A stretch of DNA of 64,000 bases from a bacterium (GCA_963667425.1 OY763407.1:1281960-1345959); one strand, 5' to 3'. Counted from the stretch's first letter, positions 27,860 through 33,035 are shown. Notes: generated by a model not told the origin, from the sequence alone. Translations and numbers: made by a program.

Positions 27860-30800
27860 TTACTTTGAAAGATGTAATTTTCCACTAAAAACCTGATATA
27901 ATATTCCTTTGTAAGCATATCCTTCTCTTAAGTAGTTTTTTTCTCCTGACATTTTTGTAAGACCATTTTCTGATGCTTTAAACTGTCCATTTTTACATCC
28001 CAAATAAACTGTATCTCCAAAGCTCTGCATTTCTGCATCATTACATTTCTGGTTAAAGGAATTACGTTTTTGTGGAGATTTTATATTGCTTATGTCATAG
28101 ATCTCAACATAACCTTTTGTGCTGAACCATTTAGTTTTTTCTCTGTAAATATAAAGCTTGTCTTTTACAACTTCAAGGTCTACAACTTCTCCATCTGCTG
28201 TTATTGATGAAATCAGTGAAGGATTGTAAGGATCTGAAAGATCATATATTTTTACTTTTTTGTTTTCTGCTGTAAAAAGCATACCTTTTGCTATTCTTAT
28301 ATTTTCGCATTTGTCACTATTGATATCTGATTTTTTATCAATCGAGCCATCTTCTGCTATTTTAAAGATATCTATTTCTCCATAGTTTGCTGCATACATT
28401 CTATTTTCTGAAATTGCCAGATTGTTGGTTTTTCCGTTGGTTGTCAGTTTTTTCTTTTTCAGTGTTCCATCTGATTCTATTTTTATTCTTCTTATTCCGC
28501 TGAGTCCTCCTATATAAAGATTGTTTTTATAGCCTGCAACTGTAAGTTTGTAATCAAAATAGAGATGAGAATCATAGTTGTAATCTGTAACAGAGTTACA
28601 TGTTCCATATCTTTCTGTAATTCCGGGATATATTGAATTTCCTGTTTCTGAAACACAGTAATGGGGCTCTTCTGTATCTAACTGAAAGATATCCACGGTC
28701 TCAACTTCTTCTATTTTTATTGAATTATCTGCTGTATCAAGCTCTATTCTGCTTGTCGTATCGTTTGTTGAAAGAATATTTGTCATAACTATTCTGCCAT
28801 CAATATTGTTCATTATCAGTTTTTCTGTATCTGCATTTATATTGTCATTTATTATCTGCCAGCCATTTGTTTTATCAAATTTCATTACTGATGTACTTTT
28901 ACTGTTTTCAGGATTATACCTGCCTGTAAGATAAATTCCTGTTTCTGTCCCTATTATATTTAGAGGGAGGCTGTAAAAAGGTTTAATATCACTTTCTATT
29001 TCACTTATTTTACCTTCTGCTAAATCAACTTCTGATATTTCCATTACGCCATCTTTATCTGCTGCTATATAGATATTTCCAAGTGCAGGTATAAGTTTAA
29101 CTGATGAATTCATGCCGAGATTTTGCTGTAAGACTTTCTTTAAAACATAGCTGTCATCTTCTTCTCTTACAATTTTATAAAGAAACTGTGTTACAGATCT
29201 TAGCATTGTTGAACCTATAAAGTATATTGTGTTATCATAGACTGCAGCTGATTTTATGCTGTTTATCAAATAATCACTATAATTCGTTACAGTTCCTATT
29301 TTCTGCCAGTCTGATGATGGTGCGTAGTTTGCAAAAAGTTCATAAACATTGTCACTTGTTTCTGAAATTGTATATGTAGCATTTGAATTCATATCTTCTA
29401 TTACTGCCTGCATTAAAGGAAGTGAATCTATTGAAGATGTTGTAAGATTAAGATCGCTGTTATTTATATTTATAAAACCGCCATGCTGATATCGTGTAAA
29501 TGACACATTTCCTGATATAAAGCTTTCCATTGGTATAAGTATATTCTGAGCTGATGAATCAAGTAAACCCTGACTGACAATTTCTCTAAACTGTTTCATG
29601 ATTTCTGCAAGATTTAATGTTGCATTGCTGTATTCAATTTTAGCCGGCTCTGTATTTGATCTTGATGCTAATGACCATTTGCCGACACTATTATAGTCAT
29701 TTATGTTTTCTCTTGTAAGAAAGTTTTTAAAATATTCAGGGTTTACAGAACCATTAATAAGATATCTTTCATCATTTGTTGCATAGTTTGAAGATAAGGT
29801 ATAGTACATTGGTGTTTTTGATCTGATCTCTCCATTTTCTTCACATAGTGCGTAGTATTTATAATAGTCATCTTCTCCACAATTGTATTGTGCATATATA
29901 TCTGCTCTCCAGTTCCAGTATGCTGAAGGTTTTATTGTAGATATATTTTGTGATGCTGTTACAGGTCTTTTATAATTTTCTGCATTTTTATAGTTTATAT
30001 TATCTGCATCTTTTGAATTATCTGTCCATGCTATTTGTGGACAGCGTGTTCTTCCATTTACTATAAGATTTGATGCTGTTGCATGAGTGTGACCAATTTT
30101 TGTTCCTGACTCAAGTGTTTCAGTTTCACACACTGAATCCCAATTGTTATATGATGTAAGAGTGCAACCAGTTTTCTCACTGTTCCACAATCCATTAGGG
30201 CAGTATTCCTGCAGGTCTGCTCCACAGTAGTGGACTCTGTGTTTTCCATCTCCATTATTTACTGGAAAATAGTTTTTATAGTAACCACCTGCAATGGATA
30301 TTGAAATTGTTTTGTTTATTTCACCGAAACCGGTTACTGGAAGTGATATTGAACCCTTTGGTTTATATGCAATTGAAACAGAGTATCCACCTTCATTCTG
30401 AGATCCTGCTGAAGAATCACAGGCATCACCTATGCCGTCAAGATCATGATCAGGCTGCCATATATATTTATCTCCTATATTAGTATGTTCCCAGTAACCG
30501 TTGCCTATAGCTTCCAGTCCTTTTATGATTTCTGATGATGGATTTGCCATTGTTTCAAATGGATTCCATTTTTCAGGGCAGTTATCAACAGCATCAATGA
30601 CACCGTCATTGTCACTATCTTCGCAGGCATCACCTATCCCGTTATTATTCCAATCTTCCTGGTTTGGATCATAGATTGAAGGACATTTATCATCAAGAAA
30701 CGGAATCCCATCACCATCGTTATCTATTCTTCCACTGAGTATGTCAGATTGCTCTACAATATAAGATATTTTTATATCTAAAGAAGGTTTCTCATTAACT

Positions 30801-31501
30801 TTTCCCATTACAGCATGACATATTCCTGCTATATTTCCATCTGTATTTAAAATTCCAGAACCAGAGTTCCCACTATATATATGTGCTGAATGGTTAAAAT
30901 AGTAATCTTCATCATAATTAGATTTTGTTACTTTACCTGTTGAAATAACTTCAGGATATGATAGAGGATATCCTATTACTGCAATATCATCGTCAATATT
31001 GAGAAGTTTTTTTTCAATTCTTTTAAATTTGTGGCTTATTCCCGCTCTAGAGAGTATATTTTCGTTATAATAATAATAAAAAGGTTCATTTCTTAATGGA
31101 ATATCATAAAGCTCAAGTATTGCATAATCATCACTATAAATATCTCCGACTTCAACCACTGATTTAACAGCATATACAACTCTTTCTCTAAGATGATGAT
31201 CTCTTTTATCTTGATAATCGAAAAAAACATAGGCAAAAGGGGGAAATTGATCTTTATTTATCAAATCTGGATTTGCATACCTATATGGTCCCCAGAAAGA
31301 ATCTTCATACAACAAAGAAGCATTAATGCAGTGTGCAGCAGTAAGATAAAGATTTGAACTTATCATTGTTCCACTGCATGTAAGATAATTTATAAGTTCT
31401 GGAGACTCTTTATCTGCTACAGAATCTTCATTGATATCAAAAATTTTATGTAGCGTCTTATCATATCTTAATGTTACATCATTGTTAGGGTCAAAAAACA
31501 C
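27860..31501 (-). CDS. Large secreted S1 (trypsin-like) serine protease with thrombospondin-type-3 Ca-binding repeats and beta-propeller (LVIVD-like) repeats; the 5' end is disrupted by an IS3 insertion, so this is the 3' portion
   Basis: Contains LTAAHC (His motif), GNSGSG (Ser motif), Asp-rich D.D.DG.D..D.CP repeats and C-terminal repeats such as YAANYGEIDIFKI. The ORF as drawn starts at a GTG with no signal peptide. The signal peptide lies at 32880-33035, upstream of the IS. Confidence 0.7.
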   Translation of the reverse strand: MFFDPNNDVTLRYDKTLHKIFDINEDSVADKESPELINYLTCSGTMISSNLYLTAAHCINASLLYEDSFWGPYRYANPDLINKDQFPPFAYVFFDYQDKRDHHLRERVVYAVKSVVEVGDIYSDDYAILELYDIPLRNEPFYYYYNENILSRAGISHKFKRIEKKLLNIDDDIAVIGYPLSYPEVISTGKVTKSNYDEDYYFNHSAHIYSGNSGSGILNTDGNIAGICHAVMGKVNEKPSLDIKISYIVEQSDILSGRIDNDGDGIPFLDDKCPSIYDPNQEDWNNNGIGDACEDSDNDGVIDAVDNCPEKWNPFETMANPSSEIIKGLEAIGNGYWEHTNIGDKYIWQPDHDLDGIGDACDSSAGSQNEGGYSVSIAYKPKGSISLPVTGFGEINKTISISIAGGYYKNYFPVNNGDGKHRVHYCGADLQEYCPNGLWNSEKTGCTLTSYNNWDSVCETETLESGTKIGHTHATASNLIVNGRTRCPQIAWTDNSKDADNINYKNAENYKRPVTASQNISTIKPSAYWNWRADIYAQYNCGEDDYYKYYALCEENGEIRSKTPMYYTLSSNYATNDERYLINGSVNPEYFKNFLTRENINDYNSVGKWSLASRSNTEPAKIEYSNATLNLAEIMKQFREIVSQGLLDSSAQNILIPMESFISGNVSFTRYQHGGFININNSDLNLTTSSIDSLPLMQAVIEDMNSNATYTISETSDNVYELFANYAPSSDWQKIGTVTNYSDYLINSIKSAAVYDNTIYFIGSTMLRSVTQFLYKIVREEDDSYVLKKVLQQNLGMNSSVKLIPALGNIYIAADKDGVMEISEVDLAEGKISEIESDIKPFYSLPLNIIGTETGIYLTGRYNPENSKSTSVMKFDKTNGWQIINDNINADTEKLIMNNIDGRIVMTNILSTNDTTSRIELDTADNSIKIEEVETVDIFQLDTEEPHYCVSETGNSIYPGITERYGTCNSVTDYNYDSHLYFDYKLTVAGYKNNLYIGGLSGIRRIKIESDGTLKKKKLTTNGKTNNLAISENRMYAANYGEIDIFKIAEDGSIDKKSDINSDKCENIRIAKGMLFTAENKKVKIYDLSDPYNPSLISSITADGEVVDLEVVKDKLYIYREKTKWFSTKGYVEIYDISNIKSPQKRNSFNQKCNDAEMQSFGDTVYLGCKNGQFKASENGLTKMSGEKNYLREGYAYKGILYQVFSGKLHLSK

Positions 31502-31608
31502 AAAAATTCCTGCTGATGTTTCTGCTTTATCTACAAAAGAAGAAGAAAAAGGAGATTCTGAATTCTGAGTATAGCTTTTGCTATAGCCCCCTAAAAACTA
31601 TACAGAAA

Positions 31609-32505: not shown

Positions 32506-32828
32506 TAACTCCCTCTTTTCTTCGGATGTGAACTCTTTTTTTTTATCAGTTCAAGCTGTGCCGCAATCAGTACTTCTTTCTCAGCAAGCAGTTTCTTAAG
32601 TATACGATTTTCCTTCTCAAGTCCTTTTATATCTTTAACTTCAGCGATTCTTCCGGCTTTCATGGGAAGTAATCCTGCTATCCCTTCAGCTTCGTACTTC
32701 TCTTTCCACACATAATAGGTCGTAGGATCCACTCCGTGTCTTTCACATGTTTTTACAACACCGTGCTCTTCCGCTTCTTTCAGTATCAGAAACTTTTCTT
32801 CCGCACTGTAACGTTTCCGCTGCACCAT
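32505..32828 (-). CDS. IS3-family transposase OrfA (HTH / leucine-zipper)
   Basis: RYSAEEKFLILKEAEE...GVDPTTYYVWKEKY HTH region followed by heptad leucines. An A9 slippery run at 32536-32544 lies just upstream of the stop, and the orfB frame is open through it. Confidence 0.8.
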   Translation of the reverse strand: MVQRKRYSAEEKFLILKEAEEHGVVKTCERHGVDPTTYYVWKEKYEAEGIAGLLPMKAGRIAEVKDIKGLEKENRILKKLLAEKEVLIAAQLELIKKKSSHPKKRGS

Positions 32829-32879
32829 CTTTCCTCCTCTTTTATTGGGAAAGTTTAACTGTTTCTTTTGTACAGTCAA

Positions 32880-33035
32880 TTATGGGGCTAGAACACTTTC
32901 AACATCCTGATAGTCACAGTTTCCTGTAGAAGGATCACATGCTGATAACACAGGATCTTCAACTTCTTGAGCCATAATGTTCCATGAAATCAGCAATAAA
33001 AAAATAAAAATAGATAAAACATTTAATTTTTTCAT
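32880..33035 (-). pseudogene. Severed 5' fragment (signal peptide plus first ~25 residues) of the S1 protease gene, separated from its body by the IS3 insertion
   Basis: The minus strand encodes MKKLNVLSIFIFLLLISWNIMAQEVEDPVLSACDPSTGNCDYQDVES, then runs into the IS. Deleting 31579-32899 joins it in frame to ...SYTQNSESPFSSSFVDKAETSAGIFVFFDPNNDV..., the start of the 27860..31501 ORF. Confidence 0.75.

Follow-up and report, generated by a model that had tools for sequence, protein, structure and literature searches.

The DNA analysed here is a stretch of 64,000 nucleotides from a bacterium (GCA_963667425.1, OY763407.1:1281960-1345959), hereafter the window, in which an insertion sequence (IS) lies between a short open reading frame (ORF) with a signal peptide and a long ORF for a predicted protease; all coordinates are positions counted from the first letter of the window. 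We conclude that one single gene, which encodes a 1284-aa exported multidomain protein, was very probably hit at codon 47 by the transposition of a 1317-bp IS of the IS3 family.

The two sides of the element were examined at the level of the reading frames. The short ORF (32880-33035, minus strand) begins MKKLNVLSIFIFLLLISWNIMAQEV... and has 51 codons followed by TAA. Its N-terminus, read by eye, consists of MKK, the 15 hydrophobic residues LNVLSIFIFLLLISW and then NIMA|QEV, which is a Sec-type pattern. The left inverted repeat of the IS contributes V-L-A-P, its four final codons, as well as the TAA, so that the short ORF ends 13-16 nt inside the element and not at its edge. The typical signal peptide named in the original prediction can be read in the sequence, but the ORF that carries it had been given as 50 codons at 33035-32883 ending right at the inverted repeat, and both the length and the end needed correction. 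On the other side, the 1213-codon ORF (27860-31501, minus strand), which starts at a GTG at 31501 and has no signal peptide, was found as first described. Its frame stays open for 24 more codons from this GTG up to the IS (codons 48-71, 31502-31574), with no start codon among them, and these codons encode the second half of a conserved motif (Y...SPFSSSFVDKAE). Public records treat the two ORFs as two proteins, P0121 of 51 aa and P0001 of 1213 aa.

Removal of 1321 bp, i.e. the IS and one copy of the AAAG repeat that flanks it, leads to a single ORF, as the earlier in silico excision had claimed, and this ORF encodes 1284 aa. The restored junction reads ...CDYQDVES|YTQNSESPFSSSF... (in a longer stretch, ...CDYQDVES|YTQNSESPFSSSFVDKAETSAGIFVFFDPNNDV...), and the reconstructed empty site is ...GATGTTGAAAGCTATACTCAG...; the codon of the junction serine goes from AGT to AGC, which is the sole change. 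Both gene fragments are stop-free over 3.85 kb. By our own arithmetic, an in-frame and stop-free junction over the 24 intervening codons would arise by chance in ~5% of cases (1 in 20). The exact restoration of the frame is, taken alone, suggestive and not proof.

We searched for homologues exhaustively with HMMER, using the restored N-terminal 330 residues as query, and retrieved 148 of them. In 41 of the 148, a motif located 5' of the codon for the catalytic histidine is contiguous, with the form C-G-x(4-5)-Q-x-V-E-x-[YW]-x-G-x-L-G-x(4)-F-V-x-x-H-[EQ]-x-x-V-G. P0146 contains the literal YQDVESY and reads ...LSACNNPTGGYQDVESYQEV..., while P0134 reads MKAIIIIIMSLCLSVFAQEVVSTACDEEFDFQDVEYYDGSLG... 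and starts MKAIIIIIMSLCLSVFA|QEVVSTACDEEFDFQDVEYY, with a ...VFA|QEV... arrangement like that of the window protein. In an alignment of 18 sequences (A4; residue numbers are those of the restored 1284-aa protein), Q43, V45 and E46, which lie before the IS, are invariant, and Y48, directly after it, is nearly invariant. The IS sits between codons 47 and 48, and it thus interrupts the conserved motif without adding or removing a residue. P0131 (1340 aa), whose signal peptide, protease domain, thrombospondin type-3 (TSP3) repeats and C-terminal propeller are arranged as in the restored protein, aligns to restored residues 7-432, through the junction.

The large paralogues P0002, P0003, P0004, P0021 and P0040 all start with their own MKK-hydrophobic signal peptide, and P0002 is encoded by one uninterrupted gene. 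In another metagenome-assembled genome, this gene is followed by a gene for a 532-aa protein (L002 12188-13786; L002/L003) that is 60% identical to the lipoprotein encoded downstream of the protease in the window, and the shared partner makes P0002 the positional counterpart of the window protein. No lipoprotein partner was found in the neighbourhood of P0004, so that P0002 is the sole positional counterpart. A Pfam scan of the 529-aa window lipoprotein gave no match. On sequence grounds, the giant exported protein and the lipoprotein look like a conserved gene pair.

These data bear directly on the possibility that the signal-peptide ORF and the protease ORF are truly separate genes, with the IS in the spacer and an in-frame fusion that is coincidental. 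Their separate annotation as P0121 and P0001 and the lack of any uninterrupted allele among the sequences searched would fit such an arrangement. However, IS sequence makes up the stop and the last four codons of the short ORF, the 24-codon stretch from the IS to the GTG carries conserved residues yet no start codon, the IS cuts exactly through a motif that is unbroken in 41 homologues, and every large paralogue has its own signal peptide. Conservation across the junction, the paralogue signal peptides and the synteny of P0002, together with the IS-encoded stop, lead us to reject two separate genes, to which we leave next to no probability. We retain the reading originally proposed, in which the IS entered one gene at its 5' end, with Q-x-V-E before the IS, Y after it and the motif contiguous in distant homologues.

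The motif also marks a wider group: a trypsin-like subfamily among P0130-P0274 is widespread, carries C-G-x(4-5)-Q-x-V-E-x-Y-D-G-x-L-G-x(4)-F-V-x-x-H-x-x-x-V-G-Q-[IL]-Q-W before the catalytic histidine, and no description of this motif was found.

The inserted element and the disrupted gene point in the same direction. Its ends, TGTTCTAGCCCCATAA and TGCTATAGCCCCCTAA, are imperfect inverted repeats that match at 13 of 16 positions, start with TG and finish with CA; a perfect 13-nt subterminal inverted repeat (pair I23) is also present. A match of 4 nt between the two flanks is expected by chance in ~0.6% of cases at the base composition of the window, again by our own arithmetic. Coincidence is an improbable account of the arrangement, as independent copies of the IS have these very ends and homologues are conserved across the junction. 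The conceptual OrfAB protein (406 aa, obtained with a -1 shift) scored 231 bits against the NCBIfam profile transpos_IS3, whose curated cut-off is 160 bits, and covered positions 1-367 of its 369. The orfB stretches IEIDIKY, RSDNGSQF and PQENGYVE, picked by eye only, are candidates for the DDE residues. Together with the HTH_Tnp_1 match in orfA and the rve match in orfB, these data confirm, at the sequence level, that 31579-32895 is an IS3-family element with TG...CA ends and a 4-bp duplication within the 3-5 bp of the family. The family, the terminal repeats and the CTTT duplication of the original prediction were thereby reproduced, and related copies of the IS end at the identical bases. 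Among plasmid-borne IS3 transposases, even the closest reach no more than 35% identity to that of the window; the element is therefore an unnamed member of the IS3 family, with no named relative, for which a new name would be due under the ISfinder convention.

Table 1. Coordinates of the disrupted gene, the inserted element and neighbouring features in the window
Feature	Position	Strand	Evidence or remark
5' fragment of the gene: codons 1-46 and first two bases of codon 47	32896-33035	minus	signal peptide; first half of the motif, SAC...YQDVE
3' fragment of the gene: codons 48-1284 and stop	27860-31574	minus	ORF; restored frame; domain matches
IS3-family insertion sequence, complete, 1317 bp	31579-32895	minus	repeats; ORFs; domains; IS3 profile; related copies
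Left inverted repeat, TGTTCTAGCCCCATAA	32880-32895	minus	inverted-repeat search (pair I22); related copies
Right inverted repeat, ...TTAGGGGGCTATAGCA	31579-31594	minus	inverted-repeat search (pair I22); related copies
Target-site duplication, copy 1 (gene strand AAAG, plus strand CTTT)	32896-32899		direct repeat beside the IS
Target-site duplication, copy 2 (gene strand AAAG, plus strand CTTT)	31575-31578		direct repeat beside the IS
orfA, 107 aa from ATG, AGGAGG upstream of the ATG	32505-32828	minus	HTH_Tnp_1 (Pfam, 2e-13)
orfB	31609-32505	minus	Pfam HTH_21, rve (1e-18), rve_3
A9 run, site of the -1 shift from orfA to orfB	32536-32544	minus	reads A AAA AAA AAG in the orfA frame
Lipoprotein gene, 529 aa	26236-27825	minus	35 nt 3' of the protease stop
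tRNA-Gly(CCC)	25961-26036	minus	between the protease-lipoprotein pair and tamB
TamB-like gene	22137-25937	minus	
Omp85/POTRA (TamA/BamA-like) gene	19205-22150	minus	

The limits of the IS are found again in other copies. A contig of 1433 nt from an unrelated sequencing run (L001) is 99.5% identical to the window IS over exactly positions 1-1317, and the similarity collapses at the TG end and at the CA end. Over the same positions 1-1317, contig L004 is 89.8% identical without gaps, and the more distant relatives L005-L007 keep the termini TGTyCTAryCCC...GGGGyTAwAGCA, so that the same termini are seen in five related copies. Additionally, membership in a protein cluster revealed a second OrfB, different at one residue, on the same 2.95-Mb source contig; the IS is thus present there in at least two copies and was probably active recently. 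It is probably still active. A scan for OrfB in the GTDB representative genomes, among which the source genome is absent, gave no relative of the transposase, the contig index has no entry for the OrfB of the window, and the spacers of the clustered regularly interspaced short palindromic repeats (CRISPR) array of the window matched neither the IS nor the rest of the window.

A solo fragment of 61 bp (37537-37597, plus strand) was also observed in intergenic DNA (37227 to 37644), 4.6 kb from the IS, and it shares 85% identity with the 61 bp at the left end of the element. This fragment spans the left inverted repeat up to the ribosome-binding site of orfA and is oriented opposite to the full copy; a right end matching it was found nowhere in the window. 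It is probably the left-end remnant of an older, related copy of the IS.

The two transposase genes overlap at the A9 run, orfB being in the -1 frame relative to orfA, as the earlier observation of a preserved A9 slippery site implied. The run holds the classical A AAA AAG heptamer in the phase that is correct for -1 ribosomal frameshifting. The transposase would be made as an OrfAB fusion through a -1 shift at this run, by ribosomal frameshifting and/or transcriptional slippage, one additional A in the transcript being enough to give the same fusion by slippage. This architecture is the one shared within the IS3 family (for example the IS3, IS150, IS911 and IS407 groups): a length of ~1.3 kb, orfA (helix-turn-helix) and orfB (DDE/rve) in frames 0 and -1 with an A-rich slippery overlap, imperfect repeats ending 5'-TG...CA-3' and a target duplication of 3-5 bp. 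In another member of the family, IS1447, a nine-A run has been shown experimentally to cause transcriptional slippage (PMC6211511). IS1447/IS120 of Clostridium thermocellum have nine A at the end of orfA and direct repeats of 3-4 bp, are multi-copy and often split genes into pseudogenes; in IS1447, which has 5'-TA ends and inverted repeats of 48-49 bp, only the '+1' slippage is reported to give the full-length transposase (PMC6211511). The nine-A run is common to IS1447 and the window IS, whereas in the latter the arrangement is the classical -1 one, the ends are TG and the inverted repeats measure ~16 bp.

We then considered the protein encoded by the restored gene. The N-terminal domain matches Pfam Trypsin_2 (8.5e-13), and a His/Asp/Ser triad, H128 (TAAHC), D196 (DYAIL) and S284 (GNSGSG), is invariant in A4. 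By sequence, the protease domain matches the staphylococcal Spl proteases in the PDB. The AlphaFold model of this domain has a predicted template modelling score (pTM) of 0.80, and a Foldseek search with the model returned as top matches V8, Esp, Spl and the exfoliative toxins (1qy6, 4jcn, 2as9), with E ~1e-10 and a TM-score, normalised by target length, of ~0.7. The modelled segment that corresponds to restored residues 43-72 contains a strand, a helix and a strand, with a predicted local distance difference test score (pLDDT) of 88-93. The protease domain is followed by TSP3 repeats, a conserved middle region specific to the family and a C-terminal beta-propeller. The sequence and the model support the prediction that the N-terminal domain is an S1B-like (V8/Spl-like) serine protease of the chymotrypsin fold, and the label of protease given originally holds on the three counts of Trypsin_2 match, triad and predicted fold like V8/Esp/Spl. 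With the S1B proteases (V8, Esp, SplA-F and the exfoliative toxins) the window protein shares the chymotrypsin fold, the triad and the TAAHC and GNSGS motifs. It differs from them by a sequence identity of 14-20%, by an additional N-terminal motif, C-G...QxVExY...FVxxH, which is absent from those structures, and by a C-terminal extension of ~950 aa with the TSP3 repeats and the beta-propeller.

The proteins P0001-P0004, P0021, P0040 and P0131 constitute a family of exported proteins of 1200-1800 aa, which have in common the TSP3 repeats, the middle region (WQPDHDLDGIGDACD...) and the C-terminal propeller. The N-terminal domain is swapped within the family: the window protein and P0131 carry an S1B protease there, P0002 has MopE-like repeats, and in P0003/P0004 the domain is uncharacterised. 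The C-terminal ...DGW or ...DGWL of several members is missing from the window protein.

Concerning the effect on the gene, the sequence shows that 4 bp of the target, AAAG, were duplicated and that the promoter, the start codon, the predicted signal peptide and the motif's first half were cut off from what follows. On the upstream side, the gene now stops at the TAA in the left end of the IS, giving a 51-aa peptide; the downstream piece has no start codon before the GTG at codon 72 and no signal peptide, and export of the protein would be lost with it. We infer that the gene is functionally knocked out. A product starting at this GTG (V72) would stay cytoplasmic and, judging from the model, would be devoid of segment 43-72, where the protease domain has a conserved and confidently modelled strand and helix. 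The downstream lipoprotein gene may also be subject to polar effects. The event was originally called probably recent. The intact duplication, the stop-free fragments and the preserved A9 run on which this relied were all found, the transposase genes are intact, near-identical copies exist elsewhere, and an evolutionarily recent insertion is plausible.

Several results weigh against the insertion as we describe it, or against a complete loss of function. In a search of 5.8 billion proteins for an uninterrupted allele, only P0001, the 1213-aa form, was found at 100%, the next match being 35% identical; the metagenome contigs of the Joint Genome Institute (JGI) contained no relative of the restored N-terminus. 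As no intact allele was present in the databases searched, the pre-insertion state is reconstructed and not observed. An exact look-up of P0001 on contigs also found nothing. The proposed check for uninterrupted alleles was thus negative for near-identical ones in these databases, and its equivalent with distant homologues was positive. Matching flank repeats were sought at L001, L004 and L005, which are short metagenome contigs, and none was found, so that the 4-bp duplication is documented once only; the mismatch is probably due to the fact that such contigs join flanks of different copies. No frameshift-stimulating RNA structure was predicted 3' of the A9 run (z = 0.52), and in its 9-A slippery run with no predicted stimulatory structure downstream the window IS differs from the family pattern. 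An AGGA lies 6 nt 5' of the GTG at 31501, which makes initiation there, and a truncated cytoplasmic product, possible. The prediction of terminators gave none on the gene strand of the IS and, as IS and gene are oriented alike, read-through may proceed into the transposase genes and onward through the 3' fragment to the lipoprotein gene.

The absence of matching flanks elsewhere raises the question of whether the arrangement in the window is an assembly artefact, with a multi-copy IS mis-joined at this place, or an insertion carried by a minority of the sampled population. The IS does occur in several copies, a second OrfB variant lying on the same contig and others being known from further datasets, and the mismatched flanks on short contigs indicate that assemblers struggle with it. 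The 2.95-Mb length of the source contig, however, suggests a long-read or finished assembly, and a mis-join would not make a perfect 4-bp repeat whose removal restores both frame and motif, for which reason we consider this explanation very unlikely.

The second group of results, on initiation and read-through, would suit an insertion acting as a switch, in which precise excision toggles the protease (phase variation) or IS-driven transcription gives a functional leaderless product. The duplication and both fragments are intact, so that precise excision would restore the gene; the IS is oriented like the gene with no terminator predicted, and a possible Shine-Dalgarno sequence precedes the GTG at 31501. 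Elements of other IS families are known to mediate phase variation of surface factors, and IS256 in icaC and IS1301 in siaA are IS insertions that inactivate genes for surface or secreted factors. As in those two cases, the window has an element with a target duplication in a gene for an exported factor, whose excision would restore it; the IS family differs. Against a switch, the empty-site allele was seen nowhere in the databases searched, precise excision is rare for IS3-family elements, the product starting at V72 would be without conserved structural elements of the protease domain and no outward promoter stood above background. For the last point, a scan for promoter consensus gave 39 sites, compared with 27.5 expected in shuffles of this AT-rich DNA, with none convincing and outward at the right end of the IS. 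This is not meaningfully above background, and the scan was set aside as evidence either way on the IS-borne promoter suggested originally. A switch therefore has only a slim chance of being correct. We give equally little credence to its extension, according to which the switch, by precise excision through the intact 4-bp repeats, would restore a costly or immunogenic secreted protease-adhesin, both alleles coexisting in the population of a deep and poorly sampled lineage. In a weaker form of this idea, the giant proteins with their swappable N-terminal enzyme domains and a conserved 530-aa lipoprotein partner may be an undescribed surface system.

The window contains other features of note for the identity of the organism. 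The TamB-like and Omp85 genes (Table 1) show the organism to be a diderm; its G+C content is low. The best matches of its RNase Y (35101-36651) among 185,579 species-representative genomes are 42-50% identical and are spread over several phyla. From these sequence comparisons, the source lineage appears to be a deep, poorly sampled diderm one. A 135-nt tandem duplication in two copies, with 82% matches, lies at 5897-6170 (plus strand) within the ORF 5636-6754.

A type V CRISPR-Cas locus is located on the minus strand. In its array (54280-55072), 13 repeats of 36 nt alternate with 12 spacers of 25-28 nt; the reverse complement of the repeat ends ...AATTTCTACTGTTGTAGAT (...TAATTTCTACTGTTGTAGAT), which we take to be a Cas12a-type CRISPR RNA (crRNA) handle. 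The genes beside the array, all on the minus strand (55297-55590, 55587-56648, 56545-57108 and 57105-60578), encode cas2, cas1 and cas4, by Pfam, and an effector of 1157 aa. This effector matches PDB chains named 'Cas12a3' (21we, E = 2e-69; 9hlx, E = 7e-61); it gave no NCBIfam match at E <= 1e-10, and in Pfam a weak one, below the cut-off (Cas12f1-like TNB). By its sequence, the locus would be of Cas12a3 type.

Returning to the insertion into codon 47, its first consequence is a correction of the annotation, the public 51-aa and leaderless 1213-aa 'proteins' very probably being the halves of one disrupted gene. The case also indicates that an insertion can be proved without a close empty-site allele, through the conservation of the junction in distant homologues. 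The original observation and its reading hold in their essentials, the sequence-level statements having all been reproduced with minor corrections. Mechanistically it is a textbook insertional disruption by an unnamed and apparently active IS3-family element. For the organism it would represent a biologically ordinary loss-of-function event, suggesting that this lineage can lose one of its several paralogous exported multidomain proteins.

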